DNA of 64,000 nucleotides from Verrucomicrobiota bacterium. Its GTDB lineage: Bacteria; Verrucomicrobiota; Verrucomicrobiia; Limisphaerales; AAA164-E04. This document shows positions 6,955-53,650 of this stretch, piece by piece. The stretch is taken from positions 2,075,218 to 2,139,217 of the forward strand of contig CP170459.1 in assembly GCA_047947115.1 (NCBI GenBank). Reading direction: 5' to 3'. The notes beneath the pieces were generated by a model, which saw only the letters and a list, made by a program, of their open reading frames with translations, did no database searches and was not told the DNA's origin. Each line of letters starts with the position of its first letter. Position 1 is the stretch's first letter. The position numbers and the translations under genes are program-made.

Positions 6955-6960
6955 TTCGAA

Positions 6961-20899: not shown

Positions 20900-21006
20900 G
20901 GTGGTATCTCATTGGATCAATGGTGTTTGTTTGTGTCAGTACGCACACAAACACAAAGGAGGATCATCATCGGAAACGTACACACGTCACCTGGAAGATC
21001 TTTTGA

Positions 21007-21363: not shown

Positions 21364-21755
21364 TGTCTCTGGGTAGTGTAGTCTAGGTGCCAAAAAATGC
21401 GAGAGGAATTTAATAGGTGGAGGGGCGGGGCGCAGGTCAAAAATTATAAATCCAAATCTGGAGGGGCAAACGCCGCTTTGCTCCCACTTCTATGCTCAGG
21501 ACATATGCATGCCTTACGGTAGCGAAGGACATACTGCAAGCATTCGAACACCAGTGGCTTTCCGCGTTCCATCTCAATTGATCGGGAATGATTCAAGGAG
21601 AAGATTTGGGAACCGGGTGGCACCGGTCCCTCCTTTTCAAAATACTGAACGGCGCCCGATACCTCGATACCTCGGAGCACCAGAGTGCGCTTGCATCTTT
21701 CAGGGAACAATGTGAGTATCTCGCCAATCCATTTATTCAAATCATATCCACGATC

Positions 21756-23174
21756 ATGCAAATGTTTCTTCGTCGACTTTTGGTGTGCTCTGTTTTGAGC
21801 ACGGTTCTTTTTGGTTTCAACGTTTTTGGAGCCGCCAAACCCAACTTCATCCTTATCTTTATTGACGACCAGGGGTATGGCGATTTGAGCTGTTTTGGTT
21901 CAAAAATCATCAAAACACCCAACATCGACAGGCTGGCCACCGAAGGTCGTAAGTTTACGAGTTTTATGGTGGCATCGCCTGTGTGTACTCCATCTCGTGC
22001 TGCTTTGATGACTGCCTGTTACCCGAAGCGCGTTGGGATGCATCAGCATGTGTTGTTTCCTCAGTCCAAGAAAGGATTACATCCTGAAGAGCACACCATT
22101 GCAGATCATTTGAAATCTCAGGGGTATGCCACGGCATGTTTCGGTAAATGGCATCTCGGGCACCACCCGGAAGTGTTGCCGACTTCGAACGGGTTCGATA
22201 CTTACCTGGGCATTCCATACTCGAATGACATGAACCATCCCGACAACAAAGGAAAACCGCAAGGCGGTTGGCAGGGGATGGATATTTTGTGGAATGATCC
22301 TGAATCGACTCTAACCAAATGGAAGACTCCTTTGATTGAGGATGGGGAAATTGTCGAGTTGCCCGTTGATCAACGAACGGTGACGCGGCGTTATACCCAG
22401 AAGGCAATTGATTTCGTAAAAGCTCACAAGGATGAGCCGTTTTTTGTTTATCTGCCCCATACGATGCCGCATATCCCGCTTTATGTTCCCGACGATGTGC
22501 GTGATCCGGACCCTAAAAATGCTTACATCAACACGATCGAACATATTGACAGCGAAGTTGGGCGCTTGCTGGATGTGGTGGATGATTTGAAACTGACCGA
22601 GAACACCTATGTTATTTACACCACGGACAACGGTCCCTGGTTGCAGTTCAAGCATCATGGTGGTTCCGCCGGACCGCTGCGTGCGGGCAAGGGAACGACT
22701 TTCGAAGGCGGACAGCGTGTGCCTTGTTTAGTGCGGGGACCGGGTATACCCGCTGGAACCTTGTGCGACGAATTGACAGGAACGATTGATGTGCTTCCCA
22801 CTATTGCCGCCCTTACTGGTAAGCCATTGCCATCCGATAGAAAAATTGATGGCATCGACGTTTCCGGACTTTGGAATGGAACCCTGAATCGCTCGCCGCG
22901 CACTGAATTCATTCACTACACATCGGTTGGCAATCTGGAAGGACTCAGGCAGGGAGATTGGAAAATTCTGGTCAAGAAACCGCGTAACCAAAACAATCAG
23001 CAAGGTGGCCCGAATCCGACTCAGATCATGTTGTTTAATCTAAGAGACGATGTAGGTGAACAAAACAATCTTGCCAGTCAATATCCCGATCTCGTGAGGA
23101 TACTCACCCAACGCATGGAAGCTTTGGATCAGGAAATCACCACGAATGCCCGCGCTCCTTGGGTCACTGAATAG
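21756..23174 (+). CDS. formylglycine-dependent sulfatase (arylsulfatase A family), secreted
   Basis: ORF 21588..23174. ATG 21756 gives the signal peptide MQMFLRRLLVCSVLSTVLFGFNVFGAAKPNFILIFIDDQGYGDL. Active-site signature SPVCTPSRAALMTACYP (C-x-P-x-R). Confidence 0.9.
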   Translation: MQMFLRRLLVCSVLSTVLFGFNVFGAAKPNFILIFIDDQGYGDLSCFGSKIIKTPNIDRLATEGRKFTSFMVASPVCTPSRAALMTACYPKRVGMHQHVLFPQSKKGLHPEEHTIADHLKSQGYATACFGKWHLGHHPEVLPTSNGFDTYLGIPYSNDMNHPDNKGKPQGGWQGMDILWNDPESTLTKWKTPLIEDGEIVELPVDQRTVTRRYTQKAIDFVKAHKDEPFFVYLPHTMPHIPLYVPDDVRDPDPKNAYINTIEHIDSEVGRLLDVVDDLKLTENTYVIYTTDNGPWLQFKHHGGSAGPLRAGKGTTFEGGQRVPCLVRGPGIPAGTLCDELTGTIDVLPTIAALTGKPLPSDRKIDGIDVSGLWNGTLNRSPRTEFIHYTSVGNLEGLRQGDWKILVKKPRNQNNQQGGPNPTQIMLFNLRDDVGEQNNLASQYPDLVRILTQRMEALDQEITTNARAPWVTE

Positions 23175-23362
23175 GCCCTCGGACTTCATTTGCAGAAGCT
23201 GATTGTTGCCATTTCTATTTGCCAGCCTTTCAGTTGTCTTTTTTGGTGGGGAAGTGTCGTGATTATTCCATCGGTTGAAAGTTTGCAATGGCCTTGAACG
23301 ATGGGGTGATGACGGAATTTCGATAAAATGGTGGATTGATCCATCCATAAATAGATTGACTT

Positions 23363-26300
23363 TTGGTAAGGTTTTGTAAATCATTGGCCAACCAGTTATC
23401 AGTGACACGTTCGTCTTACAGCCTGGAGGCGTTGGAGCCTCGTGTGCTTCTTTCTGGGGATGGGCTTTCTGTTTTATCAGAGAGTCACGCGTCTTCTGGA
23501 GTCGAAGAAGATTTGTTCTGCGCTTCGGAGTCGTGTGAATTGATCCAGAATGAAACACAGGATGAAGTGACCGAATGGTTGATTGACGGAGATCTTGATG
23601 CATTAGATTCTCTGTTCAACCAGGAGGGTACTTCGCAGGAGGACTGTATCTTCGCCGAAGAAAGTGACGCAGCGGGTGAGGCTGCAGTGAGCGGTCCACT
23701 TGAAGATGCTTCAGACGGTGAAACTGAGGAGCAGGGTGATGCTCCAACTTCCGATATTTCCAATTTTATTCCCGCTTCAGATATCCTTTCCGAAACATCG
23801 CTTTTGGTGACGGATCAGCCGGGAGATTTCGATTTATTTTGCTATTGTTCACGTCTGGTTGAGACGTTGAATGTGGGCAATGCCCCCCCTGCTGGTGAAA
23901 CCTGTTTGCCTGGCGAAAGCGCGAGGCACGATTTGCCATACCATGTTGCATCTCAAACGGTCGACCAGGTCTCTGGTTTGTTCGTCTCTTTAACGCCAGA
24001 GCAGGCAGAGTCTGTTCTGGACTTGTCTATGAGTCCGCAAGGTTATGTGGCTCAAGTCGTTGATGCTTATGGTAAGCTTGTGGCCGAGCCGACAGAACTG
24101 TCGGTCGATGCGACGGTTGTCATCACGGGCAGTGACGACCTCGACGATACTCTTACCATCCGATTGCCGGAAGTGCACGCGGATGGATGGCTTGCCATTG
24201 CTTTTGAAGGCGGAGATGCAGGGTTTGATTCATTGGTTCTGGAAGGGCCGGACGGTGTGCTTGTTCAGTACGTTGCTGCAGGTCCTGATTCCGGTTCCAT
24301 TCAAGGTGAAGGGTGGGAGATTCATTACACCGGACTTGAGCCCATTACCGACAACAGTGATGTGGCCGACCGGTTGTTCACCGCGACCGGCTCGGATGAT
24401 ATCATTCGCTTGAAGGACGCCGATGAACCTGGATTCATGACCATTGAAAGTGACAATGGTTCTTTTGAGAGTATCAGCTTTCCTAATCCAACTTCCTCCC
24501 TGACCATCGATGCCGGCGGAGGAAATGACCAGATCATTATTGAAAGTTTGGATCCGGCCTTTGTCGCGGGAGCAAGTGGTTCGGCTGATCCGGAATTGCA
24601 TCTTCAAGGTGGCGCTGGCACGGACACCGTTTTTGTAAGTTATCCGGCGGACCTGATTCTCACCGATGCTTCCTTGGATGGTGGAAGTGATTTCAATTTG
24701 ATTTTTGATGATGTTCCCGATCAAGTCGTGGTTTCGGGCGGAGCGATTGACGCTTCGGCTTTTTCCGGCGTGGCTGTGGTGGTACCGGGTGTGCCGGATT
24801 GGCAGGACGAGGGCCCCGGGCTGATTCATTCGGATCTCACAAAAGATGCTCCTTTCCCTGAATCAGGTGCAGTTGAAGCGATCGCAGTACATCCGGGAAA
24901 CGATCAAATCCTTTTTGCCGCGAGTGTAAACGGTGGCGTTTGGCGGACTGAGAATGGAGGGCAGACCTGGACGGCGATGACCGATGAACTGCCATCACTG
25001 TCCTTTACGTCCATTGCCATACATTCCCATGATGCGGATGGTAACTTGGTGGATGCTTCCACGCCTGTTGGCAAATTGATTGTTTTTGCTGGAACAGGTC
25101 AACGAAGCGCCAATCACGAAGGTGGATTGGCGATCGGTTTGCTGCGTTCTCAGGATGGAGGAGATACCTGGGAATTGGTGGGTGTGCCGGATATGACCGG
25201 TTTGCCGCTCAGCGCCATTGTGGCAAAACGCATTTCCGGGCAGGACATTGTGCTTGTTGCAGCTGAAGGAAAAACGGTCAGAGAATCCAGCAAAGTGGAA
25301 ATGCTTGGTTCACCGGATTTGACCTTCAGCGACCAGGGTGCATCATCGGATACCATCACGCGATCCGCTGGCAGCTGGATAGATGATGGTTTTGCATCCG
25401 GTCACGAGATTGAGGTAGATGGTACCACCCGAAATGATGCGACATACAAGATTGCTTCCGTCACTGCGACCGTAATGACCTTGGAGGCCGACTCAATTCT
25501 GGTGGATGAAGCCAGTGTCAGCGGAGTAAAGGTCATCACTTCCTTGAAGGTCAAGTTGTTGAAAGAGGGAGGTGTTTTTCGTAGTGTGGATGGAGGGGAT
25601 ACATTTACCCAGATTCAGCCCATTGACCCTGCCGCGCAATTTTTCCCTCTGGACGAGCGCCATTTTCCGACCGGATCTGTGACAGATCTGGCCATTGATC
25701 CTGGGGCGGAAGAACGCATCTATGCCGGTGTTCGAGGCGGCGGGGTCTATCGTTCCGATGACGCCGGAGCTACTTGGACCGCCGTGAATACGGGGTTAAC
25801 CCTGGCAACCGATGACTGGGACAATGACGGAAACGGCTATGTCGATGATGCTGATGAAACGGCAGTAGGGGTGCAACGTATCTTATTAGCGGTCCAGGCA
25901 GATGATGCATCGGCGACAAACGAGGTCTATGCTGCATTGGTTGGTGGGAATGATCATTTCATAGGGATATTCAAATCCGACGATCAGGGGGCTAATTGGT
26001 CTTTGCTCGGAGAAGCTCCCGGACGTCCCGAATTTGAATTGAGTTTTCCTGTCACATCGAATGCCGGGCTCATCGACTTCCTCGATAACAATCCCGCTCA
26101 GGATACGGTTGTGCGATCGACTGGCAGTTGGATTCGGGATGGCTTCCAAGCGGGGGATTACATTGAAATAACCGGATCTGCTGCAAGCGATGGGGTTCAT
26201 TTGGTGGCTTCCGTCAGTCATGACACATTGACGATGGATGCGGGTGTTGCCCTGGATACCGAAGTTTATTTGCGCAGTATCAAAGGGGCTCCGGAATTGA

Positions 26301-29300
26301 CCTTTGCCGATGCGAATCCCGATACTATCACGCGTAGCGTGGGGAGCTGGGTTGAGGACGGGATTGTGAAGGGGCATGAGATCAAGATCTCCGATACAAC
26401 GGGCAATAATGGCACCTATACCGTGACCGGAGTCACTCCGCTGGTGTTGACGCTATCTGGTTCGGATTCACTCACAGCAGAGACCATTCAGACCGCAGTA
26501 GAAATCAAAGCAAGTGCCACCGAATACGATGGTCCGGGAACGCTTCAACCTCAGATTCACCGCGGCAGCCAGGGCGAATTGCATTTCTCAGTCACGGCGG
26601 ATGCCGATGGCAATATCTATCTGGGTGGGGACCGGCCTGCCCATATTTTCCGTTGGGATCAAACAACCAGCCAATGGGATCACATCACCAAGCAAAACGC
26701 CACGGGCACACGTTCGCATGCTGACTCAAGAGTCTTGATTCTGGATGGAGCAGGGCAGCTTTTGGATGGGGATGATGGAGGCGTGTATCGTTTACTTAAC
26801 CCTGGTGACAATGCCACGGTGACCATGACGGGATCTCCGCGCGTCACTTTCGTGGATGCCAATCCTGACCAGGTTCAACGCTCTGCCGGAAGCTGGATCA
26901 CGGACGGGTTTGTCGCAGGTCAACGCATTGGTGTGACAGGTAGCTTTTCTTTGTATGGGAATGACGGGGTTTACACGATTGCCTCAGTTACCGCTTCCAC
27001 TCTTACACTGGTTGCATCTGATCAGCTTCAATCCGAAGGCCCCAGATCTGGCGTCACAGTTGTCTCTTATCCCGCTTTGGCCGGCAATCCGAACCTGACT
27101 TTTGCGGATGCCTCGCCGGATACCATCACCCGTTCGGCCGGGAGTTGGGTTTCCGATGGATTTGCTGTCGGACATCACATTGAAGTATCAGGTTCATCGA
27201 GCAACGACGGCATTTATACGATTTCCGAATTGACCGCGACTCTGTTGAAAGTAACGGCAGCCGATAGTCTTGCTGCCGAAGGGCCCGTCAATGGAATCCA
27301 TGTCTGGCAGAATCGTGAGTGGAAGAGTCTGAATGCATCCCTTGGTGCCACGGAGATTCTTTCCATGTCTTACGACCCGGTCAGCAATGTCTTCTTCGCC
27401 GGTACTCAGGATAATGGTGTCATTGAACAGCCTTTTCCGGCTGACGGTGTTGACAATGACGGGGACGGTATCGTAGATGAACCGGATGAACGCTTCAGGT
27501 GGTCTGTTGTGCTGGATGGACGCGGACTTCCGCCGGGCGATGGCAACATCACCGCCGTGGCGTTGTTGGATTTGGATGACGATGGGCAGATTGACGAAGT
27601 GCGTCGCTATACCATGTCCAATAATCTCGTCAGTTTTACCCAGCGCCTTTTTGACGAAAATGGAGCACTGATCCCGGGAACGAATCAACTTGTCGGACTT
27701 GCTTCTCCTGTGTCGCAAACCGTGAACTTCACTGTCAACATCGGCAGCGACCAACTTACCATCAATGATCATGGCTTGGTGACCGGAGACGGACCCTTCA
27801 AAGTGGACGTTTCCGGAGGAGGTAGTCTTCCGGCCGAACTGTCAACAGATGCGCTATATTGGGCCATTCGGGTTTCTGACAACGCCATTCAGTTGGCCGC
27901 CAATCAGCAGGATGCTTTGGATGGAAGCCAGATCAATTTGACCACGGATGGCTCGGGGACACGTCAGTTGACGAAACCTTTCCTTAGCTTTGGCAATGCC
28001 GCCATTGACGATCCCACCGATCAGATAACCATTCCCAATCATGGTCTGGCAACGGGAGCCGGGCCGTTCCGTCTGGTGACCAGTCGGGGTAGTGATTTTG
28101 GAAGTGGCCTTTATCCCTACATAGATTACTACGTCATTCGGGTGGATAACGATACCATTCAACTGGCACGTTCCAAGGCTTTGGCCAATGCGGGAACCGA
28201 TTATTCCATCAAGGACAATGGTTCCGGAGCTTTCCAGCTTGTCTCTCGATTGAGTGGTTTGAACGGCAACGATGCTGCTAAGTACACCAGTGGTTTTCGG
28301 GAGTTGGCATACGCTGTCAATCAAGTGGATGACACCCGAATGTTGCTTGGTTTGAATTCGGTTTATGCCAGCGTGAATATCGGTAGTGACGCGACTCCTT
28401 ATTACGATGGTTTGGGAACGGTGCAGAGATTGTTCACTCATCCAAGCAGCGGTCAGTTCACTTCACTGGTTTACGGAGGTTCCAAGAATGGTGTTGAGAA
28501 TCCCGATGTGGTTTATGCCTCCAGCTGGTCTCGCATTTATATTCAGGTTGCCAATGCCATGACGGGTAACCCCAATCTGGTATTTGCGGACAATGGGGCA
28601 AGCGAAGATACCATTACCAGATCGTCCGGAGATTGGGAGGCGGACGGGTTTGCTCCCGGTCAGGTGATTACCATCAGCGGTTCGTCTAACAACGATCACT
28701 CTTACACTGTTCAAGCCGTGACTCCTACCGTGTTAACGGTGACTTCCGGAGACAGTCTTACTGCCGAAGGGCCCGTGAATCAGGTGGCTGTAAGTCGTTT
28801 CAGCAGGGAAACCACCCCCGGTTCGGAAACAATCAACGGGTTGGTGCTAGATCCTGATGATTACGACATCGCTTATGCCATTTCGGATGCAAACGTGTAT
28901 CAGCGCACTGGACCTGGGAAATGGGAAATCATTTCAACCGAACTATCCAGCTTGTCATTGAAGAGTATTGAATTCGCCCAGGTAGGAGGGACGGACATCC
29001 TGCTGGTTGGCGGTGTGAATGGATTGTTCCGGGCAATCGATCCGCAGCCAGGAGTGACCTGGACGGAAGTGGGGCGCGGCTTGCCCAATACCTTGCTTCG
29101 TGACACAGATTATATCAGTCGCGATCCGGCTGATGCCCCGAATCCACACAACTTGTCCCGCGAAGATATTCTGTTGGTGGCGACTCAAGGTCGCGGTGCA
29201 TGGTTGACATTGTCGCCGGATGTTTATCTGGACGAAATGACTGAAATTCACATTGTGGGCGATGGCGGCAATGATGAGATCAAGATTGAACGTCGTGCAA

Positions 29301-35300: not shown

Positions 35301-38300
35301 AATTCGGGTTCGACTTTACCGCTGCCTATGGCAACCTCCTACCGCTGCAATTGGATCTCAATGCGTTGGTGAATCAATTGGCAGGCGACAGCGGTGCTGC
35401 AGCTTTCCTCGATGCAGCCACCACGCTGATCCAGGTCGAAGGATCCGGGTCATTGGAAGTCAGCGCGAGTGCTTCGTTGATTTTGGATTTTGGAATTGAT
35501 GTGACCAATCCCACATCACCCGAGGTGTTCTTCTATGACACCACCGGAATTTCGCTTCTGGCTAAGGTGCTTGGACGCGATATTTCCATTGAGACCTCGC
35601 TTGGTTCCGTGATTGGGATCTATATTGAAGACGGGGAAGTGACCATTGATCAGGATGGTGATCCGGATACTGATGCGGGCGACGACGATCGAGGTGTTGA
35701 GTTCGGCCTGACGCTGAACGACACGAATGGTGATTCCAGGATTTATTTCTCCGAAAACTGGTTCACCACCGACATCATTGACATTTCCCTGAATGGCGGA
35801 CTGAGCGTATCCCTGCCAATCTTTGCTCCGGTGGAAGGATTGCCGCTGGGCGGGACAGGGGATCAGAACGAGGACGGACATCCGGACAACGAGTTGTATA
35901 TTGAAATCTCCGATTTTGCCGGACTGTTTTCCGGGGAGGATGTGGTCACCATCATTGCCCCGGATCTGAACAACCTGATTCAAAATGTTGATTTCTGTGC
36001 TGTTTTAGAAAATGCGGGTTTGCTGATCAATGGACTGGATCAACTGCTCGGTTCGATCGAAGAAGGGCTGCAGGATCTGGTGGCATCCAATTCACTTCCA
36101 ATGCTTGGGGATGGTTTCAGTGATGCTGCGAACTTTATCTCGAGTTTCCGAAATGGTTTGCTCGCGTCCATACAAGCCGAGTTGGATGCGGCAGGCGGCA
36201 GCGCAGTGACCGTTGTTGAAAACGCGCTCAAGCAAGCTTTCTGGGAAACGCTGGGACCGGAAGGGTTGGATTTGTTGGTAGACCCTGATTCGGGTGAAGC
36301 GCTGGATCCATCACTGGGTTATCATCAGCTCGCCGTGATGCTGGACTGTGAAGCAGGGTTGGTGGTTGATCTGCGATTGCGCAAGACCGTCGCCTTGGTG
36401 GACACCAGCGAGAATCCGATTGATTTTGACATTGGCGTGCCCGGATTCGGGTTGGAAGTGAATGGAAATGTCAGTGTCGCCATTGGATTTGATCTCAAGT
36501 TCGGCTTCGGGTTGAACAAGGAGGACGGTTTCTATTTCGATTCCTCGGCAGGTGCGGATGATCCCGAGCTGCGAGTCTTCTTCGAGGCCAGCATTCCCGG
36601 TTTGTCGGCGACGGGGAGTTTGGCATTCCTGCAACTGGACGTCGGAGATGATCCGGATGATCCGAGTTCGTTTGTCGGTCAGTTTGTTGTGGATCTGAAA
36701 GATCCCAATCACGACGGAAAACTGACATTTGCCGAGATGAGTTCGAGCGGGGTGCAGTTCTCGGACATATTTGATCCGGGACTCGAAGCCGTGGCGGATG
36801 TGAATCTGGACCTGTCGGCCAGTTTTGGTGGCAATGCGGCCTTCCCGCGCGTGGTGGCGGAGTTTCATCTGGATTGGTTGTGGGATCTGGAAGAAGGGAT
36901 GCAGAGCCCTGAGATCGTGCTTTCGGACATCGCGCTGGATCTGGGGACCTTTATTTCCGATTTCCTGGAACCTATACTGAATGAGATCCGCAAGGTCACC
37001 GAACCACTGGATCCCATCATCGAAATCGCCACGGCCCGCTTGCCGGTGCTTTCCGATCTGGCTGGTCAGACCGTGACTTTGCTGGACTTGGCTGAACTGT
37101 ATGGTGTGCTGGAACCATCGACCGTTCGCTTCATTGAAACGGCTCTCAAAGTGGTCGACATTATCAATAACCTGCCGACAGGGAATGGCAGTGTGTTGAT
37201 TCCGTTTGGTTCTTTCCGGTTGGGCGAAGATGAAAATGGGAATCGCAACCAGATTCAGACACTCGATGCACTTGGTTCCACCGACTTTGCCGGAATGGTG
37301 AACAATGCCGCTGCCACCGATACGAGCGCGACCTATATGAATCAGGTGTCCGGGTTTGCCAGTGATGTTGACAGCCTGGATAATTTCAGCATCCCGATCT
37401 TCAAGAATCCTGCCGAGTTGTTCAACCTTTTCATAGGCGAACCGGTACGTCTCATCGAGTGGCGCATGCCGACCTTTGAGTTCAATTTTACATACACACA
37501 GAAAATAGCGATTTACCCGCCGCTTTACGCACACTTTGGAGGTTCCATTGGAGCGACCATCGACATCGGTTTCGGTTATGACACCTTTGGCATACAGAAA
37601 TACATTGCCGCCGAAGACAAGAATGTCCTGGATCTGTTCGATGGATTCTATGTTCTCGATTTCGATGAAAACGGAAACGAACAACCCGAACTTGAATTGC
37701 GGGGCGAGATCTTTGCTGGGGCTTCCATTGACCTGCTCGTTGCGGAAGCGGGAGTGACGGGTGGTATCTATGCTTTGATTCAATTTGACCTCAATGATGT
37801 CAACGATGACGGGAAGGTGCGCATTAGTGAAATCGTTGCCAACGCCCAGATCGATCCACGTTGCATTTTTGATATTCACGGAGAAATGGGATTGTTCCTG
37901 GAGGCCTTCCTGAGTGTGGACCTGTTTTTCTTCAGCATCGATAAGACCTGGCGCTTTGCGGAGATCACCCTGTTTGAGTTTGACATCACCTGTCCCGAAC
38001 CCGTGTTGGCATCGAAGGATGGTTCCGGGGTGTTGACTCTGCACATGGGAAGTGATGCGGAAGATCGTGAAGAAATCGATACCAGCGACTCCGCCGAAAC
38101 GTTCATCGTGACACATCTGGATGGCGATGAACTCAGTGAAACGGTGGAAGTGCAGTGGGGTAATTACAAGCAGACCTATGAAGAAGTCACAAAAATCCTG
38201 GTCGTCAACGCTGGGGCCGGAAATGACTTGATCGATCTGCGCGGCGTCTTGGTGCCCGCCGAAGTCCATGGAGGCGTTGGTAATGACACGATCTACCTCA

Positions 38301-41300
38301 GTGACGGCATGGGCGCCGTTGTTTATGGCGATGAAGGCAACGACACCATCGTGGCCAGTTCCGCCGCTTCGGCCACGGGCGTGACTCTTTACGGTGGTGA
38401 TGGCAACGATGTATTCACGCCGGGAACGGTTTCCATCACGATCTACGGCGATGGAGGAGCCGATATAATTCCGGGTAGTCCCGAGGGAGACTTCCTGTAT
38501 GGCGGAGCCGGGGAAGATACCATTCTGGGCGCAGGTGGGGATGACTATCTGGAAGGTGGCGATGGCAAGGATACTCTTGAAGGATCGGCGGGTAGTGACC
38601 TGCTCTATGGCGGTCTCGGCACCGACGTGCTTCGAGGAGGCCGTGATGATGATCTGCTGGACGGTGGGGAAGATGAGGATGTGCTCTATGGAGGTAGCGG
38701 TAATGATCTGTTGATCGGTGGAGAGGATGCGGACAAAGCCTACGGACATGGCGGTATCGATCTTTTGATCGGGGATAATGTGGCCACCATTTTTGGAGCC
38801 GCTCCATCTCGGGATACTCTTCCTTTGCTTGCTGACATTCCAACTTCCGGACTTCAAGTGACCGGTCTGACCGGTTTGGGTAATGATTTCCTGATCGGCG
38901 GCGGCAATGTGGATGTGCTCTTTGGTGGTGACGGGGATGATTTCCTTTACGGTGGCAACATGTTCGCCAATGGGGAAACCGAGATCATTGAGGAAGATCA
39001 CAATGATTTCTTCGATGGCGGCGCCGGGGATGATGTGATCTTTGGCGACGATGCAATGGGACGCACGGGAGATCGTGACACAGGCATCGAGATCCGGGGG
39101 GCTGTCTGGTATGACAACAACAAGAATGATGTCTGGGATGATGAAGAAGTCGGGTTTGGATCGATTACGGTCGAGCTTCGCAAACAAAGTGATGACAGTT
39201 TGATCGCAACCGAAGTAAGTGGTTCCGATGGTTCGTTTGTGTTCAAGGGGCTGGATCCCAATAATTACTACCTCGTTGCCAGCAAGCCTGCCGACCTGGA
39301 TTATCTGGTGTCAGATCCTGCTCATGACGGAGAGGCATCGTACGTTGATAGCGATTTCATTGATGCTGCCGGCCGCACGGCCACGTTTGCGTTGGATTAC
39401 GATGAGGTGGAAACATCCATTGCGATTGGTTATGTGGGCGATCCGCTGCTGTCCATTGGGGATATCTCAGTAGAGGAAGGGGATTCGGGTGTCATCAATG
39501 CCACCTTCACCATCACTCTTTCAGGTCCTCAGCTTTATGTCGCTACCGTGGATTATGAAACAGTGGATACAACGACAACAGCCAAAGAGGCTGACGGAGA
39601 CTTTGAGTTCACGAGTGGCACATTGGAATTCGCTCCGGGTGAGACTTCGCTTCAGGTGGTAGTGCCTGTTTTGGGTGATCTCACGTATGAGGATCACGAG
39701 CAGTTCGTTCTCCAATTGAGCAATCCAAGCGCAGGTATCGTCCTGCCTGCAGTACCGAGCGCCACGGCGACGATTGTCAACAACGATCCCATACCTCAGA
39801 TTTCCATCAGTGATTTCAACCCCATTCCAATCGATTACGAAGACGCAGATGAAACGCGTCCGATTTACGATGAAGATCAGGATGCCGAGTTCATCATTTC
39901 GCTGAGCAATCCGTCCCATAACACGATCGAGGTCTCCTGGACCACCGATGTGGCGATCACCTCAAGGGGCTTGGCGGTGAATGACGCAGCCACACCTTTC
40001 GGTTTGCCGGATGGTGATTTCATTCCCGCAAGTGGAACCGTGATCTTTGAACCGGGAGAAACGCGCCAGACCATAACCGTGGAGGTGCTGGATGACGATG
40101 GATACGATACGGACGGTGATCCTGCCACGGTTGTGCTGGACGAAGCGGCAGAAACTTTCCACGTCAACCTGTCTAATGCCAAGTTTGCCTTCATCAGCGA
40201 TGATCGCGGTGTGGGGATCATTGAAGACGATGACGATCCGGTCAGTGTTTCCATTGCGCCCAACTCGCCCTACGATCCTGATGGCGCCGGTCCCATGACT
40301 CCATTGCCTTTCGAGACGCATGTTGTCGAAGGGAACTCCGGATCACAGTATGTTGAGTTTGAAGTGACCTTGTCGGAACGTAGTTCACTGCCCGTGACGG
40401 TCCAATACAGCACCTCACCCGGAACGGCGGTAGGTTCGGTCTATAGTAAACAGAGCAAGGCGATCAAAGACCTGCCTGACTATGAGCCTACGCCGCAGGA
40501 AGACAAGACGGATCACGAACTGGAGCTTTTGTTTGCGCCAGGCGAAGTTTCGAAGACTTTCACCGTGGAAGTCTACGGAGATAATCGCATCGAATCCGAT
40601 GAAGATTTCTTCGTTAATTTGTTGAGCGCCCATAACGCAGATATCGCCACGGATCCGACAACTGAGAATAATCATGTGACGGTGGTGATCGAAAATGATG
40701 ACAGCATGGTCAGCGTGGACTACGGTCCATACAGCATCTGGTTCAGCGATCAGATGTATGTGGTGGATGAACCGGACGCCGGATCGGAGGATGCTGAGAT
40801 CACCGTTATCAGGGCAGACGGCAGCTCCTATGCCATCGCTGTTTTGACGGCTTTCGATATTTCGGCCACCTCGGGAGCAGATTATGATCCTGTCTTTCGA
40901 ACCCTGCTGGTATTTGAGCCCGGTGAAAATTCCAAGACCGTATTGATCCCGGTTCATGCCGATGATCTGAGTGAAGGGGATGAGGAAGTCTTGTTGTTGT
41001 TGCAGGATCCCACCGGAGACGTGGTGAACGGTGAACCCTATGCGTCTACATTGGTGATCAGGGATGGCGACACACCTCAGCTTTCCATCGAACCGCCCGT
41101 CTTTGCATCCTTGCCTTGGGGAATAGATATTCCTGGCATCAAGGAAAACGGTGTGCCTCCCCATGAATTTACCGTCAAACTGAGCGCCGACGCGCCTCCA
41201 GGCGGAGTCACCGTTTATTATGAAACAGTGGCTATCTCGGCACGTGAAGGCACGGACTTTATCGCGGACTCCGGTTGGATCGTGATTCCGGAAGGTCAGG

Positions 41301-46744: not shown

Positions 46745-46834
46745 TGAAGAGGAAAGATAACAACGATCAATCAAGGTTTGCCGTCTTTCAAACAACAGAA
46801 ACATCGGTTCTGAGGCGATATTCGCATCGAACTC

Positions 46835-46840
46835 GGAGGA
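46835..46840 (+). promoter_or_regulatory. Shine-Dalgarno sequence (GGAGGA) for the 1,603-aa gene
   Basis: GGAGGA lies 7 nt upstream of ATG 46848, and only 103 bp separate it from the giant gene stop. Confidence 0.6.
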
Positions 46841-46847
46841 TCGAATT

Positions 46848-49800
46848 ATGATGCTATTTGGAAAAAAACCGGAGTGGTTTCCTGTCTGCTCAGGGGTTGC
46901 TCGACTCATTCTTTCAACATTGTTATGCGCCTTGGTGGTGTGCGTCGCCAAGGCTCAGACCGCAGCGCCGCCAGTTTCCATCGTGGATGGTTTTGCAGCC
47001 AAAGACAACAGCACCGTTTTGGATGAAGATGGGGAACTGCCCGCCTATATTATTTTACGCAACAACCGCTCTCAAACAACAGCACCGATGGATTTGAGCG
47101 GTTATGCGTTGACCAGTGACAGCACGGGAAATGCTGTCTGGATCATTCCTCCACGCACTCTGATCGCGCCCCAGTCGGAATTGATCGTATTTGCTTCCGG
47201 CAAGAATCGTCCATCCAGCAATCCTGAATTGAGAAATCACACCGATTTCATATTCTCCTGTGAAATTCCCTACGTTGCGCTATTGGGCCCCAAGCGGGAG
47301 GTTGTTTCCACATTCCGTAAACTAGATCCCAATTGCAGCGGAAATGATGATGATTGCCGGGGGACGCCTCTGTTCCACGATAAAACCATCGGTCGCTACT
47401 TTGTGCCCAGTACCGACAAAATGACCGGTATCTGGATGGAACCTGACTTTGATGTCTCAAACTGGAAGCGTGGTCCACTTGGTCTGGGTTACGAAGTGCT
47501 GGAATCCAAGGGAGAACTGGACATGATCCTTTACGCGACCATGGATCGCACGGATCTGGATTTGGTGGCGAACATCGTCAAGGATGTCAGCGGGTCGCCC
47601 GTCGTGCATGATGGCCTGGCATCACAAAAAATCGCCATGACAACCGGGCAGATTCAACAAGGGATCAACATGGCGCAAGGTCAGGCCATTCGTTTTCGTC
47701 ACCATGACGAACTGGATCCCGTAACCAGCGATTTCACAGTGTCCATCTGGTGTCGCACTTTAGGGCAGGGAGATGAAGTGATCATTGCCAAAGGTGGATT
47801 GAACAACGAAACCACGGGTTGGGCGATTTTCAATCGTAAGGATGCCACCATCGTGCGATTGAACTATGGAAAGGCGGGCATCGTGGATTTGACGCTGCCA
47901 CGACTGGAGGTGGAGCGTTGGACACATCTTGCGTTTGTTATTGATCGGACTCAGAAAGCAGCTTTCGCGTACGTCAATGGAGTCGTGGCCGCGAATGCCG
48001 GTATACCGGCTGATGCCTTGCTCGCGCCTCGAACGGATATGTGGATTGGGGCACGTCCCGACGGGAATCCTCTTTTCACCGGCACGGTTGATGAAACCGT
48101 CATTTGGCGGCGTGCACTTTCCAAGGGAGAGATTCGCACGGTCGCCGCACTGGGAGCGAGTGGAAAACGACTGGATACGGCCGTTTCGACTGGCACGCCG
48201 ATTTATGTGGATCTCATTTCAACTGATGTGGAAACGGATATGTATGGAAAGGGTTCCAGTTTGTATGTGCGCATTCCGTTTTTGGTGAACGACCCGAACC
48301 TTGTGAGTGGATTGAACCTTTCCATGCATTACGATGATGGTTTTGTCTGCTATCTGAACGGCGTGGAAGTAGCCCGGAAAAACGCCCCGTCCACTACCTT
48401 CCCAGGGTACGATGCCACGGCTTCGAGCGATCGAGCGGATACGTTGGCTTTGACGGCGGAATCGATCAATCTGGCCAATGCCATCCGTTATCTGATTCCC
48501 GGGGAAAACCTCTTGGCGATTCATGGGTTGAATGTTTCGAAGGATGCGGGTCGTTTTGTGATCAAGCCACAACTTTGCCTGGAAGAAAGCGAACCTCAAG
48601 ATTGCGAGAAGACCACCAACGGGCGTGACTTCTGGTTGACCTTTCCCGGCAACGCTCCTGAAGACACAGGCAATCCGCTTCAGATCAGTTTGTGTGTGGC
48701 AGGCCTTGCGGGAACCACCGGACGTGTTGACGTCCCGGGTCTCGGTTTTTCGAAGAATTTTACGATACCGGCAAACGGTCCCACACCTGCCACGGGTAGC
48801 CTGATGTTGCCTTTGCCCCGGGAGGTTTCTCTGGAGGTCTCAGGAAAAATTGAATCCAAGGGAGTGAGGGTGCGTGCACAGTCGGATGTGAGTGTTTACG
48901 GCACGACACGTATCGATTATTCCACCGATTCCTTCCTTGGTTTGCCGGTCGATTGCCTTGGTAGAAATTATGTGACCATGGGCTATAAAAATGTATGGGA
49001 AGATATTCCTGTGCTGAACGGATCGCAGATTGGTCTGGTGGCGCCCTACAACGGGACCAAGGTGCTGATTGATGTCGGGACAAGCGCTTCCGGCGGCGTT
49101 CCGGTCGAGGTGACATTGAATGAAGGGGAGACGTACCTGTTGCGCGATACCGGCAACAGTCCGGCTGACTTGAGTGGTTCCCGCATTTTATCCAATTTAC
49201 CGGTCGGTGTGTTTGCTGGTCATCGTTGTGCGAATATCAATGGCAAGGATTTGTTCTTCTGCGATACGGTGCTTGAGCAACTGCTGCCCATCTCCGGTTG
49301 GGGAACACGTTACTGGAATGCCCCGCTCAGTACCCGCAACCATCTGCTTGGCGATGGCAAGGGTGACACGCTTCGAGTGACTGCTTCCGAAGATAACACG
49401 GCGGTGACCATCACCGATGATCAGGGAGCGAATGTTTTGGTCCTGAACGCCAATCAGATCCATGAACAATCGGTCATTGGACCCAGCTATGTTATCTCCG
49501 AGAAACCTGTTTTGACGGCGGTTTATGCGAATAGTTCCGATTTTGATCTCGTAACCGATTCAGATCCGTTCATGGTGATGTTGCAGCCTGAAATTCATTG
49601 GCTGGATCGCTACATTATTTGCACACCTCCCTCCAGTGATTTTGAACAGAGCTACGTCAATATCATTGCGCGGAATATCACAGAAGCATCCACCATTCGG
49701 CTTAACGGCGCCCCAATCGCGGGATTTCTGCCTCTTGGCGCCAGTGGCTATTTTTATGCGCAGGTCGATTTGGATCCGGCTTTGTTGCGGCATACGATTA

Positions 49801-51659
49801 CATCGACCCGTGCCGTATTTGGGGTGACGGTTTACGGCTTCAGTGAGTATGATTCCTACGGCTATCCCGGGGGAATGCGCTTTGACTCCGCCGGAGCCCC
49901 TTTTGTTGTATGCCCTCCTGACGTCACTATCCCGGCAGGTGAGAATTGCGAGGGAGTCATTCCTGATTTGAGTGAATTCATTCAGGTTGTGGATCCATGT
50001 GATGAAGGAGGCGATCGGCCGGTTCCCGGCGATGATTGCTTCGAATTTGAAGATCTTAAACTCCAAACCCTCATCCGTGATGGCGACACATTGACGATCA
50101 TCAGTGCATCGGGGAATCAAACCGCCAATGTAACGGCATCGGCTGCGGGATTTGCCGCTGTGGCTGCCGTGGTCAATGGGGGACAAGCCGGACATACGGG
50201 GAATGAGGTGCGCTTTGCCAACATCAATTTGACCTTCGTTTCTTCGGCTCTCACCTCAGGGTTTTCACTTTCATTCGGCGAATATGGTGGGTCCGTGAAC
50301 CTGGGGGTGAACAATGATCTTCAGACCGCCGCCAATATGGAGGATTTCAATGGCAAGACGATTGGGGGAGCACAGGTTGCTGTAACAGGTGCGACGGGCG
50401 GACAGGGGACGGGGACGCTGACTGTCACTGGAACCATCCGCAGTTTTACCATCGGTGGCCAGGAGTTTTTTATTGATCATATCTGCCCTGGAGGCGGAGG
50501 GACGGTTGAAGTGCCGGATTGTTATGAGTTCGAAGATCAGGATGCCAAACTGGTTCTACGTGTGGGAGACACAACACCCGCAACCAGTAGCACAGGAAAC
50601 TCGGTCACCGTTTTGGGCGCTCCTTTCACATGGTCCAATGGACAGGTGACTCAGGAGGGATCTGCCGCCATTCGAACCAATGGTCAAGCCGGGCACACGG
50701 GCAACGAGTTTGCCGTGAACAATATTCTGTTGAAATTCATCCCAACCGAGTCGTTTCCAAACGGTGTCTCCATACTGTTCGGCGAATACGGCGGCAATGT
50801 GAACCTGGAGGTTAACGGCGAATTGGCCAATGTCAGCAATTTCAGTGAACTGAGCGGCACCTCTCTGGGCGGGGCGCACATTCTCGTTACCGGTGGGACG
50901 GGTCAGGGATTGGGTGAATTGCACATCATTGGCGAGTTGAAGGAATTCGGGATTGGTGGTCAGGAATTGTTCATCGATCACCTTTGCCTGCTTCCAGCAA
51001 GAGCAGTGACGGTAGTGGATCGTATCACGACGAACCTTGGTTCTTTGACTCGATCCTTGGTGAAGCAGGCTGGTGTGGGGCAAAATTATATCGTCAAGCA
51101 AGATCCCCCTGCGGGTTTGATGGTCTCGGCAGGATCTTATGACGTCAGTGTGAGTGTGGTCGACCTGCAGGGAAACTCGATTGGAACATGCGTGACCCAA
51201 GTCAAGATTGTTGACGATTCGCCCGTCAAAATCGTCTGTCCTCCCAATATAACGGTCAACTGCCAACGTCCTGAAGGAGCATTGGTTTTTTGGGAGGGCC
51301 CAGTTGCCTACACCGAGCGATGCCAAATGCCCGTGGAGGTGAGGTGCAACTATGAACCCGGTGAATTGTTTCCGTTGGGTAATACCACCGTCACCTGCGT
51401 GGCCAAGAGTCCGTCCGGTGAAGTGGCTACATGTTCGTTTTTGGTGACGGTTGTCTGTGAAGATGTCGTCGTGCCAGATAATCCCACCGTCTCGATCAAT
51501 CTTTCAGATGGGACCGGCATTACACTGGATTGGCCGGCAGGAGGCTATTTGGAAGCCGCCGACAGTCCGCTGGGCCCTTGGGAAATCGTCCCCGAAGCCA
51601 GGCCTCCATTCAACATCAGTACCACTCGGAAGCAGGCATTTTATCGGATTCGTTATTAG
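46848..51659 (+). CDS. secreted 1,603-aa multidomain protein: lamin-tail domain, LamG, IgGFc-binding-N-like domain, two copies of an unassigned ~155-aa module, HYR domain
   Basis: Signal peptide MMLFGKKPEWFPVCSGVARLILSTLLCALVVCVAKAQ. LTD-like PAYIILRNN...MDLSGYALTSD...SELIVFASG. LamG-like DFTVSIWCRT...WTHLAFVIDRT...MWIGARPDG...ETVIWRRALSKGEI. GRDFWLTFPGN (IgGFc-binding-N-like). HYR-like CPPNITVNCQRPEGALVFWEGPVAYTERCQMPVEVRCNYEPGELFPLGNTTVTCVAKSPSGEVATCSFLVTV. Confidence 0.85.
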   Translation: MMLFGKKPEWFPVCSGVARLILSTLLCALVVCVAKAQTAAPPVSIVDGFAAKDNSTVLDEDGELPAYIILRNNRSQTTAPMDLSGYALTSDSTGNAVWIIPPRTLIAPQSELIVFASGKNRPSSNPELRNHTDFIFSCEIPYVALLGPKREVVSTFRKLDPNCSGNDDDCRGTPLFHDKTIGRYFVPSTDKMTGIWMEPDFDVSNWKRGPLGLGYEVLESKGELDMILYATMDRTDLDLVANIVKDVSGSPVVHDGLASQKIAMTTGQIQQGINMAQGQAIRFRHHDELDPVTSDFTVSIWCRTLGQGDEVIIAKGGLNNETTGWAIFNRKDATIVRLNYGKAGIVDLTLPRLEVERWTHLAFVIDRTQKAAFAYVNGVVAANAGIPADALLAPRTDMWIGARPDGNPLFTGTVDETVIWRRALSKGEIRTVAALGASGKRLDTAVSTGTPIYVDLISTDVETDMYGKGSSLYVRIPFLVNDPNLVSGLNLSMHYDDGFVCYLNGVEVARKNAPSTTFPGYDATASSDRADTLALTAESINLANAIRYLIPGENLLAIHGLNVSKDAGRFVIKPQLCLEESEPQDCEKTTNGRDFWLTFPGNAPEDTGNPLQISLCVAGLAGTTGRVDVPGLGFSKNFTIPANGPTPATGSLMLPLPREVSLEVSGKIESKGVRVRAQSDVSVYGTTRIDYSTDSFLGLPVDCLGRNYVTMGYKNVWEDIPVLNGSQIGLVAPYNGTKVLIDVGTSASGGVPVEVTLNEGETYLLRDTGNSPADLSGSRILSNLPVGVFAGHRCANINGKDLFFCDTVLEQLLPISGWGTRYWNAPLSTRNHLLGDGKGDTLRVTASEDNTAVTITDDQGANVLVLNANQIHEQSVIGPSYVISEKPVLTAVYANSSDFDLVTDSDPFMVMLQPEIHWLDRYIICTPPSSDFEQSYVNIIARNITEASTIRLNGAPIAGFLPLGASGYFYAQVDLDPALLRHTITSTRAVFGVTVYGFSEYDSYGYPGGMRFDSAGAPFVVCPPDVTIPAGENCEGVIPDLSEFIQVVDPCDEGGDRPVPGDDCFEFEDLKLQTLIRDGDTLTIISASGNQTANVTASAAGFAAVAAVVNGGQAGHTGNEVRFANINLTFVSSALTSGFSLSFGEYGGSVNLGVNNDLQTAANMEDFNGKTIGGAQVAVTGATGGQGTGTLTVTGTIRSFTIGGQEFFIDHICPGGGGTVEVPDCYEFEDQDAKLVLRVGDTTPATSSTGNSVTVLGAPFTWSNGQVTQEGSAAIRTNGQAGHTGNEFAVNNILLKFIPTESFPNGVSILFGEYGGNVNLEVNGELANVSNFSELSGTSLGGAHILVTGGTGQGLGELHIIGELKEFGIGGQELFIDHLCLLPARAVTVVDRITTNLGSLTRSLVKQAGVGQNYIVKQDPPAGLMVSAGSYDVSVSVVDLQGNSIGTCVTQVKIVDDSPVKIVCPPNITVNCQRPEGALVFWEGPVAYTERCQMPVEVRCNYEPGELFPLGNTTVTCVAKSPSGEVATCSFLVTVVCEDVVVPDNPTVSINLSDGTGITLDWPAGGYLEAADSPLGPWEIVPEARPPFNISTTRKQAFYRIRY
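50031..50993 (+). repeat. tandem duplication of a ~155-aa unassigned module inside the 1,603-aa gene
   Basis: Copy 1 (about 50031-50489): DDCFEFEDLKLQ...GQAGHTGNEVRFANINLTF...FSLSFGEYGGSVNLGVNNDLQ...FTIGGQEFFIDHICP. Copy 2 (about 50511-50993): PDCYEFEDQDAK...GQAGHTGNEFAVNNILLKF...VSILFGEYGGNVNLEVNGELA...FGIGGQELFIDHLCL. Confidence 0.8.
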
Positions 51660-51822
51660 ATCATTTGCAGTATGCGATGACGGAAATGGATTCGTTCACC
51701 TTATCATAAATCACGCCCTCTGTGCTCCAGGCACAGGGATGCAGAGGCTTTTCTGAAAAATATTAGGGCCAATCTGTAAGTTCGGGCAATCATATCCTTT
51801 CTGTTCATTTTTTACATTTCGG

Positions 51823-51849
51823 TGTAACCACTTCCATGGACATGGCGTT
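51823..51849 (+). promoter_or_regulatory. candidate ECF-type promoter upstream of the sigma-like gene
   Basis: TGTAAC (51823-51828), 17 nt, then CGTT (51846-51849), ending about 30 nt upstream of ATG 51879. AAC and CGT are the conserved cores of many ECF promoters (from memory). GCGTTGAAT is also repeated at 51845-51853 and 51868-51876. Confidence 0.3.
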
Positions 51850-51878
51850 GAATGGTTGAGTGCAGCCTGCGTTGAATC

Positions 51879-52718
51879 ATGGAGATGAAGCAACCCGATC
51901 TCGCTTCCCTGGTGGAGCGTGTCAGAGAGGGAGAGGAAGATGCCTTTCGTATCTTCATGGAAGTCCTGTACCCAACCGTGATCCGGATCGTCCGCTCTCA
52001 TTTGCCGGTAAGACAGTTGGAAGAGGATCTGGCGCAGGAGGTTTTCGTTCGGGTGTTCAAGCGCATCGATCAGTATCAGGCCCGTCCAGGCATACCGGTG
52101 ACGCACTGGGTGTGCCGGGTGGCAACCACCACATGCCTGGATGCATTGCGCGCCGAACGCAGGCGTCCTGAGTTGCGTTGGGCAGATCTCAGCGAGGATC
52201 AGGCGGAGTGGCTGCAATACATGGTGGCAGACGATCAGGAGGAGGCGCCTCATTCGGATTGCGATACCGGCGAGTTTTTGGAGAAAATGTTGGCTCAACT
52301 ATCTGTGGATGATTTGGGTGGTTTGCTGATTCCCCGTATCGATTTGTCGGAAGGTTCCGAATCAGATGTAGGAACGGAACCGATCGCCATCGGCGAACTT
52401 TGGTTGCGCAACTTGACTCTGGAGAAAAATGGTTGGGGTATCTCATCAAGTCAGTTGAACGTTGTCATTGTCAACACGGAGGAAGGACGCGTTCGGGCGC
52501 CACGCTGTATCCTTGCGGTCAGTAAAACCGATGACAACAAACCCGTGCTGATGATCTATGGCAAAAACGAGCAGCCCCTGCTGACATTGCCTTTATCCAA
52601 AGTGCAAAAGCATCAAACCAGGCCTCTGGATATGGTCACGTTCGATGACGGCAAGGTCGACCTTTGCATCAACGGTCAATATCAGGCCAGTTTCTCCGTG
52701 GCCGAATTATATTTGTAG
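51879..52718 (+). CDS. ECF-like sigma-70 family protein with region 2 but no recognisable region 4; unassigned ~140-aa C-terminal domain
   Basis: Sigma region 2 strings: EDAFRIFMEVLYPTVIRIVRSHL...EDLAQEVFVRVFKRIDQY...THWVCRVATTTCLDALRAERRR. After an acidic linker and ...EKMLAQLSVDD (about nt 52300), the remainder (GELWLRNLTLEKNGWGISSSQLNVVIVNTEEGRV...DLCINGQYQASFSVAELYL) shows no HTH pattern. Confidence 0.7.
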   Translation: MEMKQPDLASLVERVREGEEDAFRIFMEVLYPTVIRIVRSHLPVRQLEEDLAQEVFVRVFKRIDQYQARPGIPVTHWVCRVATTTCLDALRAERRRPELRWADLSEDQAEWLQYMVADDQEEAPHSDCDTGEFLEKMLAQLSVDDLGGLLIPRIDLSEGSESDVGTEPIAIGELWLRNLTLEKNGWGISSSQLNVVIVNTEEGRVRAPRCILAVSKTDDNKPVLMIYGKNEQPLLTLPLSKVQKHQTRPLDMVTFDDGKVDLCINGQYQASFSVAELYL

Positions 52719-52731
52719 CATTTTTTATTCG

Positions 52732-52780
52732 AAAACCACCCTGTTCGATTTGAAATCGTGCAGGGTGGTTTTTATTTCTT
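52732..52780 (+). terminator. rho-independent terminator after the sigma-like gene
   Basis: The 12-nt stem aaaaccaccctg (52732-52743) pairs with cagggtggtttt (52761-52772). The loop is 17 nt. A T-rich run follows (tttttatttctt), starting 14 nt after the stop codon. Confidence 0.75.
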
Positions 52781-52886: not shown

Positions 52887-52979
52887 TATGGCGATCGGTT
52901 CCGTCGATTGATGTGCTTTGCCCTTTTAGGGTGCGCCTTTGGAGCTGTTTTTGTGATTAGACATTTTTTGGTCTTTTCA

Positions 52980-53094
52980 GGTTTGCCTGCAAACCGTAGT
53001 TCCCAATTGTTACGCCCCAACGGGGCAAGCTACAACAACCCAGAGCACCGCTCTGGGGCTGCAACAGATATTCATTTCTAAGCCCTGTAGGGGC
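52980..53094 (+). repeat. cluster of three short hairpins plus an inverted REP-like core, directly upstream of the Y1 transposase gene
   Basis: Hairpins: ggtttgc-ct-gcaaacc (52980-52995), gcccc-aac-ggggc (53014-53026) and cccagagc-acc-gctctggg (53039-53057). Then AGCCCTGTAGGGGC (53081-53094), 10 nt before ATG 53105. Confidence 0.6.
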
Positions 53095-53104
53095 GCCCCA
53101 AGAA

Positions 53105-53530: not shown

Positions 53531-53548
53531 TTTTGATGAACGGTTTGT

Positions 53549-53650
53549 GTGGGATTAGGCTGCCCCTACAGGGCTCGTGGTCACCAACGATTCGAAAAAC
53601 CAGGGCGGTGCCTTGGGCTGATTTATTATGCCCCTTTGGGGTGTGGGATG
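53549..53650 (+). repeat. REP-like repeat, right copy (direct orientation)
   Basis: gtgggattaggctGCCCCTACAGGGCTcgt...aCCAGGGCGGTGCCTTGGGctga...cccctttgggg. The core lies at 53562-53575, 31 nt after the transposase stop, in inverted orientation relative to the core at 53081-53094. Confidence 0.65.

Follow-up and report, generated by a model that had tools for sequence, protein, structure and literature searches.

Four consecutive genes on the same strand fill 31 kb of Verrucomicrobiota contig CP170459.1 (assembly GCA_047947115.1), and they raise the question of whether so large a locus encodes one surface apparatus or a set of neighbors with separate histories. The stretch analyzed (hereafter the window) comprises 64,000 nucleotides of this contig, and the four genes encode a sulfatase, a protein of 7,793 aa (hereafter the giant), a protein of 1,603 aa (hereafter the partner), and a 279-aa sigma-like protein. 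An original prediction, made from the sequence alone, had treated the four genes as a self-contained and specifically regulated apparatus; in our analysis only the giant and the partner hold together. The explanation that best accounts for the data jointly is that the giant and the partner form a co-transcribed pair of surface adhesins, that the sulfatase is a lineage-specific neighbor, and that the sigma-like open reading frame (ORF) is the scar of a separate extracytoplasmic function (ECF) sigma factor operon; we assign this reading a probability of roughly 0.6.

Conservation of the giant–partner pair

That the giant gene and the 1,603-aa gene belong together, as had been predicted, was upheld by comparison with related loci: of 29 loci that could be tested, 27 carry a giant RTX ORF, colinear with that of the window, with a partner homolog directly 3' of it. 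These 27 comprise four metagenome loci and 23 genome loci, the latter drawn from a partner-alignment scan over one genome per species. Partners with 63, 67, 47, and 37% identity to that of the window each stand immediately 3' of a giant gene. Giants from the four distant metagenome loci measure 7,772 and 7,755 aa, or are cut by contig ends (2,021 and 4,693 aa), and the genes 3' of the pair vary among these loci (ankyrin, an unknown gene, Peptidase_C25, and BamD/LptE). In the 23 genome loci, a frame with 11–45 RTX motifs spans the entire upstream flank and stops at the partner start; the hosts are Verrucomicrobiales, Limisphaerales (including the isolate Limisphaera sp. VF-2), subdivision 3, Akkermansia-labeled metagenome-assembled genomes (MAGs), and one Omnitrophota-labeled MAG. 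The upstream frames are colinear with residues ~4400–7793 of the window giant at 27–95% identity, and most giant orthologs share a C-terminal tail (..LTLxL....VExSF / VEDAY), a possible uncleaved secretion signal. No gene family that follows the pair is common to as many as three of the 28 loci compared. Gene order across these genomes indicates that giant and partner are a conserved two-gene module across Verrucomicrobiota, so that the synteny expected by the original prediction was found for this pair and not for the sigma-like gene or the sulfatase.

Both genes are under purifying selection, with dN/dS values of about 0.06: the last 3,298 codons of the giant give 0.057 and the partner gene 0.068, each measured against L017, an uncultured Verrucomicrobiota MAG with 88% DNA identity that is the nearest genome record to the window. 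The predicted 103-bp gap between the genes and the strong Shine–Dalgarno sequence of the second were confirmed (Table 1), and no convincing terminator was found within this spacer (fold z = -1.2). Across the 27 loci, the distance between giant and partner ranges from -41 to 103 bp, with a 4-bp ATGA overlap in seven. Strand, spacing, and the order conserved in divergent genomes indicate that the two genes are most likely co-transcribed as an operon, and the ATGA overlaps suggest translational coupling in many relatives.

In two further loci, a single ORF contains an SdrD_B-like domain followed directly by IgGFc_binding, the characteristic domain of the partner: L089 773-21217 (Novipirellula rosea JCM 17759), encoding at least 6,815 aa, and L040 2345-21268, encoding at least 6,308 aa. 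At the N-terminus, both show LE(R/D)R-like versions of the LEPR motif described below. Such ORFs weakly support, in the manner of a gene fusion, a functional link between giant and partner. In the window itself, a hairpin-rich segment lies 3' of the partner stop (51712-51760), ending in GCAGAGGCTTTTCTG and partly kept in L017 (..GCAGAGGTTTTT); its fold is not significant (z = -1.25), and it may be a weak terminator between the pair and the sigma cassette.

The giant and partner might be independent adhesins that stand side by side through a shared promoter alone, with neither a complex nor mutual dependence. Both proteins are mosaics of generic adhesion modules, and the architecture of the partner varies by locus, with only its IgGFc_binding core constant, as independence would allow. 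Adjacency, however, persists down to 27% giant identity while the surroundings change, the 4-bp overlap in seven loci suggests coupled translation and stoichiometry, and N. rosea and another MAG carry SdrD_B-like and IgGFc_binding regions within a single ORF that is 6,300 aa or longer. We therefore regard full independence as unlikely, if deserving of serious thought, and retain the reading of a functional pair.

Architecture of the giant protein

The modules named in the original prediction were borne out in part: RTX, Calx-beta, SdrD_B, LamG, IgGFc-binding, and HYR modules scored above the Pfam cut-offs, whereas the BNR/sortilin and lamin-tail (LTD) assignments fell below them. The start of the giant is ambiguous (TTG 23363, TTG 23381, or GTG 23399, with no ATG). 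Its N-terminus has no hydrophobic core, and thus no Sec signal, and carries a LEPR-XLL motif (LEALEPRVLLSGDG) that matches NF012209 at residues 20–36 with 24.8 bits, above the cut-off of 17. This motif is kept near the N-terminus of distant giants, and relatives show a basic stretch before it. Sub-threshold BNR/sortilin-like repeats occupy residues ~500–1810, and the region after them, up to residue ~4900, is free of Pfam matches; such match-free sequence amounts to about 4,000 aa of the giant. An RTX block follows at residues ~4900–5100, then SdrD_B alternating with Calx-beta at ~5250–6500, and then further RTX blocks from ~6500 to the C-terminus. The RTX match (PF00353) reaches 5.7e-67 over 13 stretches, of which the last ends ~60 aa before the C-terminus; Calx-beta reaches 3.8e-63 and SdrD_B 3.7e-31. 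In composition the protein is rich in glycine (11.7%) and aspartate (11.0%), poor in lysine (1.1%) and cysteine (0.2%), and strongly acidic (D+E 17.4%, K+R 3.5%).

Matches to the Pfam-empty middle of the giant at E ≤ 1e-30 numbered 57 among 1.84 billion representatives; many of the matching proteins are 5,000–7,900 aa long, and the region thus defines a sizeable family of giants. No DNA tandem repeats were found in the giant gene, and self-comparison of the protein confined internal similarity to short repeat groups. Residues 1–5000 matched no solved-structure sequence. A homolog search with residues 1–1000 yielded only weak partial matches and missed known full-length giants, and is therefore uninformative on context.

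Several giant homologs were observed in other settings. At L097 1517-7308, a homolog 39% identical over residues 307–800 lies downstream of KfrA, RepA, ParA, and a group II intron reverse transcriptase, a context that suggests that some members of the family are plasmid-borne. More distant proteins with the LEPR motif occur on Planctomycetota-like contigs (L142 5990-9388 and L143 4390-9569) with Ser/Thr-kinase-WD40 genes upstream; in L143, an ECF sigma gene stands directly upstream of the Ser/Thr-kinase-WD40 gene. Within the giant gene of the window, antisense ORFs of up to 958 aa (for example, 36311-39187, minus strand) showed no family matches and are probably shadow frames of the G/D-rich coding sequence, a trap for gene callers.

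Architecture of the partner protein

The partner comprises, in order, a Sec-type signal peptide, a weak LTD (below the Pfam cut-off), LamG, a beta domain like that of CotH proteins, IgGFc_binding, two ~165-aa repeats, HYR, and a small C-terminal beta domain, with an end that reads FYRIRY. IgGFc_binding (PF17517, residues 694–997) is a full-length model match at 1.6e-57, and Laminin_G_3 (4.2e-20) and HYR (1.6e-08) also score above cut-off. To our knowledge, no bacterial function has been established for the IgGFc_binding domain. Full-length relatives of the partner are few, with 92, 89, 89, 63, 67, 47, and 37% identity (P0121–P0127). Among the 27 predicted partners, all but one (L015) begin with a signal-peptide-like N-terminus; the architecture differs among loci, and the IgGFc_binding core is the only constant part. 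Comparison with solved-structure sequences gave one marginal match, to the NTNHA jelly-roll. Fold likenesses of the IgGFc_binding domain to complement C3, cupins, and MpIBP fragments were dismissed as meaningless, since no TM-score exceeded 0.15.

The sigma-like gene is a deletion chimera

The 279-aa ORF had been described as an atypical ECF-like protein with sigma region 2 only, but it proved to be an in-frame deletion fusion of a normal ECF sigma factor with an unrelated secreted protein. Its sole Pfam domain is Sigma70_r2 (PF04542; 4.3e-13, residues 29–96). The N-terminal part, up to codon 145, covers region 2 of the ECF sigma factor, the linker, and the opening residues of region 4, and is 99% identical to the corresponding part of P0002, a 200-aa ECF sigma factor with both region 2 and region 4 (PF08281, 2.7e-11). 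The remainder, from codon 146, corresponds to the last two-thirds of a secreted 200-aa protein without assigned function, represented by P0004 and P0007. Sigma region 4 was sought in the ORF and in all three frames and was found in none, and a frameshift was accordingly rejected as the cause of its loss. An exact database look-up of the 279-aa protein returned no record.

Eight contigs of near-identical strains (L001–L008) carry the intact order: the 7,793-aa giant, the 1,603-aa partner, a 200-aa sigma factor, and proteins of 98, 135, and 200 aa, with PSCyt and DUF1501 genes after the cassette as in the window. Relative to this intact allele, the window lacks exactly 1,119 bp (373 codons) between two copies of TGGATGAT, with flanks 99% identical. 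The deletion took out sigma region 4, the 98-aa gene, the 135-aa gene, and the part of the last gene that encodes its signal peptide. The start of the 98-aa gene overlaps the sigma stop, and its product has one transmembrane segment (predicted by eye), no Pfam match, and no match to an anti-sigma model; the 135-aa product has an N-terminal hydrophobic segment and two LTXXQ-like motifs, with weak, sub-threshold Pfam matches. The cassette is intact in L017 as well, and intact alleles were found on 21 contigs against one with the deletion. An independent JGI sample (L141) carries the identical deletion junction, so the allele is real; an assembly artifact was rejected on this ground and because the repeat is only 8 bp long. 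The chimera arose by a 1,119-bp microhomology-mediated in-frame deletion.

Over the 134 codons of the C-terminal part, comparison of the two deletion alleles with three intact ones gave nine derived changes, six nonsynonymous and three synonymous; these small numbers would fit relaxed constraint on this part of the chimera. Separately, five substitutions, four of them nonsynonymous, are clustered within nine codons (247–255; window 52617-52643) when the window is compared with the intact alleles and the other deletion allele. This cluster could reflect relaxed constraint or a small conversion tract.

The chimera might have gained a new function, for instance as a region-2-only protein that titrates the RNA polymerase core or an anti-sigma factor, given that the deletion is in frame and the allele occurs in two samples. 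Against this, its own promoter depends on the sigma factor that the deletion destroyed, and the anti-sigma candidate was lost in the same event. The C-terminal part has no signal peptide, its six nonsynonymous to three synonymous changes stand against dN/dS of ~0.06 in the adjoining genes, and intact alleles are the commoner form. A gain of function is thus very improbable, and the 279-aa ORF is almost certainly a loss-of-function allele.

The sigma cassette and the sulfatase are separable from the pair

Orthologs of the sigma factor at 74, 62, and 64% identity keep the sigma–98 aa–134 aa(–199 aa) block, and their neighbors (a lactonase with CotH, flagellin, and an AhpC-family gene) include no giant. 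Conversely, partner orthologs at 37–67% identity have no sigma gene downstream. A candidate ECF-type promoter motif, TGTAACC-N15-GCGTT, lies ~30 bp before the sigma start in all five lineages compared (window, L017, L009, L010, and L012). The 64-kb window contains one exact match, 5' of the sigma gene (Table 1), and none 5' of the sulfatase, giant, or partner; three matches with two mismatches fall within unrelated coding regions, a number equal to the chance expectation. Conservation in gene order and promoter sequence thus indicates that the intact cassette (sigma, 98-aa, LTXXQ-like 135-aa, and secreted 200-aa proteins) is a separate, self-promoted ECF operon independent of the pair. The proposal that the sigma-like gene specifically regulates the locus accordingly fails, since the motif precedes only the sigma gene itself and the cassette lies apart from the pair in relatives. 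The same motif, conserved in sigma orthologs down to 62% identity, is usable for regulon mapping in complete genomes.

The sulfatase (Pfam Sulfatase, 1.2e-58) carries a signal peptide. Its position upstream of the giant recurs in L096, where the giant N-terminus is 91% identical and the sulfatase is accompanied by an efflux operon as in the window. No sulfatase lies upstream of the 39% identical giant in L097, or in L099, where a SecA fragment takes that place. This distribution, limited to the 91% identical locus, does not sustain the claim that the sulfatase belongs to an apparatus, and its gene context marks it as a lineage-specific chance neighbor outside the conserved module.

A single surface apparatus of all four genes under the specific control of an atypical sigma factor would be in keeping with their same-strand adjacency in the window and in strains 88–99% identical to it. 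Yet the sigma-like ORF arose by deletion as a chimera that lacks region 4, the promoter motif of the sigma gene is absent 5' of the other three genes, the sulfatase is not conserved upstream of the giant, and the cassette and the pair are separate in every relative beyond species level. This failure of synteny refutes the four-gene model, which we consider scarcely credible.

Proposed export and cooperation of giant and partner

We propose that the giant would leave the cell C-terminus first via a type I secretion system (T1SS) encoded elsewhere and would fold on binding extracellular Ca2+. The partner, judged from its signal peptide, would cross the inner membrane by Sec. The two would then act together at the surface, with the partner providing ligand binding or anchoring to the giant scaffold. 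Type I secretion is the route we infer for the giant because of its C-terminal RTX repeats, its acidity, and the lack of a Sec signal, features familiar from RTX proteins. The partner consists of lectin-like and adhesion-type beta modules grouped about its IgGFc_binding domain, and its LamG, IgGFc_binding, and HYR modules point to a role in binding ligands or in anchoring. That the two proteins cooperate physically is proposed from their conserved coupling alone, and adhesion is the putative function of the pair.

Several observations weigh against this reading or parts of it. No T1SS ATP-binding cassette (ABC) transporter or membrane-fusion protein (MFP) was found in the 64-kb window or in the flanks of related loci, so the export route of the giant is unsupported by linkage. 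Two Verrucomicrobiota loci, L037 and L039, carry a partner-like gene without a giant upstream. The structural model of the IgGFc_binding domain, built on a seven-sequence alignment, reached a pLDDT of 53, and its Foldseek matches against the PDB were uninformative. Finally, the case for relaxed selection on the chimera is based on nine substitutions.

That no type I, type V, or type IX secretion machinery is encoded among the window genes agrees with the original prediction. Searches of the giant, the partner, and their neighbors for a two-partner secretion (TPS) domain or TpsB, a beta-barrel translocator, or a type IX C-terminal domain returned no Pfam or NCBIfam match. The contexts of distant LEPR-type proteins contain Ser/Thr-kinase-WD40 genes, one ECF sigma gene, and plasmid replication genes, and no ABC or MFP genes.

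These results bear on a different route, in which export of the giant does not involve a T1SS: the LEPR-XLL motif after its basic stretch would be a new export or anchoring signal, and the Sec-exported partner would be part of the display or anchoring machinery. Consistent with such a route are the lack of linked T1SS genes in ~30 contexts, the persistence of the motif near the N-terminus of distant giants without a hydrophobic core, and the signal peptide on every predicted partner other than that of L015. The RTX repeats that extend up to a conserved C-terminal tail, together with acidity and low cysteine content, are nevertheless the classic signature of a T1SS substrate. A T1SS is often encoded away from its substrate genes, and no candidate transporter lies beside the pair either. 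We consider a route other than type I secretion quite improbable. The broader proposition of a previously undescribed two-component surface system across Verrucomicrobiota, in which display or anchoring of the ~8,000-aa protein depends on the partner and the LEPR-XLL motif and not on a linked T1SS, is doubtful. The preferred reading remains a co-transcribed adhesin pair with a giant exported by an unlinked T1SS.

Locus layout and neighboring genes

All four plus-strand ORFs were confirmed at their predicted positions (Table 1). So too was the terminator that had been predicted to close the run: a hairpin at ~52731–52773 followed by a T run folds at -28.7 kcal/mol (z = -4.5), and none of 200 shuffles folded as well.

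Table 1. Coordinates of the features of the locus (positions within the window)
Feature	Position	Strand	Basis or remark
Sulfatase gene	21756..23174	+	ORF 21588-23174; with ATG 21756 as start, the N-terminus resembles a signal peptide
Giant gene, 7,793 aa	23363..46744	+	Uninterrupted ORF, zero internal stops
Giant–partner spacer, 103 bp	46745..46847	+	GGAGGA 8 nt 5' of partner ATG
Partner gene, 1,603 aa	46848..51659	+	ORF, Pfam, full-length orthologs
ECF-type promoter motif TGTAACC-N15-GCGTT	51823..51849	+	~30 bp 5' of sigma ATG
Chimeric 279-aa ORF	51879..52718	+	Sigma part, codons 1-145; secreted-protein part, codons 146-279
Deletion junction, 8-bp microhomology TGGATGAT	52306..52313	+	Comparison with intact alleles
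Intrinsic terminator closing the (former) sigma cassette	52731..52780	+	Fold statistics

Upstream of the locus, a CusCBA-type resistance–nodulation–division metal-efflux operon lies on the minus strand (13502-21393). Its OEP, HlyD-like, and ACR_tran genes (13502-20899) include a CusB-like protein with HMBD and DUF3347 domains and a 1,336-aa ACR_tran protein, and no ABC transporter. A 128-aa Cys/His-rich ORF (..CHCKCGGDSCC..) without a Pfam match stands at the upstream end of the operon and may be a metal-binding accessory protein. Other window genes (PSCyt1/PSCyt2/PSD1, DUF1501, CotH-LTD, and sulfatase) form a set typical of Planctomycetes–Verrucomicrobia–Chlamydiae (PVC) bacteria. An IS200-like Y1 transposase element (52925-53645; ORF 53105-53530) is an insertion polymorphism, present in the window and in L001 (91% identical) and missing from the otherwise 98–99% identical L002 and L004. 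A 173-aa ISL3-family transposase fragment, restricted to the C-terminal part of the DDE domain, lies at 3270-3791. The two elements point to mobile-element activity in this genome.

Implications and comparison with known systems

Giant surface proteins of PVC bacteria are common in genomes and have no assigned function. A family of ~6,000–8,000-aa proteins that travels with a specific Sec-exported partner narrows a 31-kb locus to two genes, and a cultured carrier of the pair exists in Limisphaera sp. VF-2. The fate of the sigma-like gene illustrates that a "sigma" poor in domains can be the product of a recent microhomology deletion and not a new class of regulator, and that sister-strain contigs resolve such a case in one step. 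The coexistence of deletion and intact alleles in nature amounts to a natural knockout of the ECF cassette, useful for finding what the cassette controls.

Among known systems, the intact allele of the sister strains resembles the ECF sigma/anti-sigma cassettes (group 4 sigma-70) in its regions 2 and 4, its overlapping small single-pass gene, and its -35/-10-like motif. The window copy differs, without region 4 or the downstream genes, and does not merit annotation as a sigma factor. The partner shares its full-length PF17517 match with IgGFc_binding proteins, which include the N-terminal domains of animal FCGBP and surface proteins of Bacteroidota. The Bacteroidota homologs are 37–42% identical to the partner over the domain and differ in that they stand alone, with no giant upstream.

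The giant resembles the giant RTX adhesins exported by T1SS (LapA, MpIBP, SiiE, and FrhA) in its C-terminal RTX repeats, its acidic and cysteine-poor composition, the absence of a Sec signal, and its Ca2+-binding Calx-beta and SdrD_B modules. It differs from all four in having no adjacent ABC, MFP, or outer membrane protein genes, and from LapA- and MpIBP-type adhesins in having no long array of near-identical extender domains. General Pfam and NCBIfam scans of the window, made with no dedicated model, found neither a LapG/LapD-type partner nor an N-terminal retention module of the LapA/MpIBP type. In the window system, moreover, modules of the ligand-binding type lie largely on a separate Sec-exported protein.

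The closest likeness is to the LEPR-XLL giants (NF012209, "LEPR-8K"), with which the window giant shares the N-terminal LEPRxLL motif, a length of about 8,000 aa, and RTX repeats toward the C-terminus. One sentence in a Vibrio genome report mentions a ~8,000-aa protein with the same ends (PMC10868602). Our literature search found no description of such giants beyond that sentence, and none of a pair of a giant and an IgGFc_binding protein. The LEPR-XLL class is annotated without known function or export route, and the conserved downstream IgGFc_binding partner is a feature that no paper found reports for it. The giant is thus a member of this annotated but uncharacterized class, and its conserved partner makes the pair a new variation on the theme of the giant RTX adhesin.

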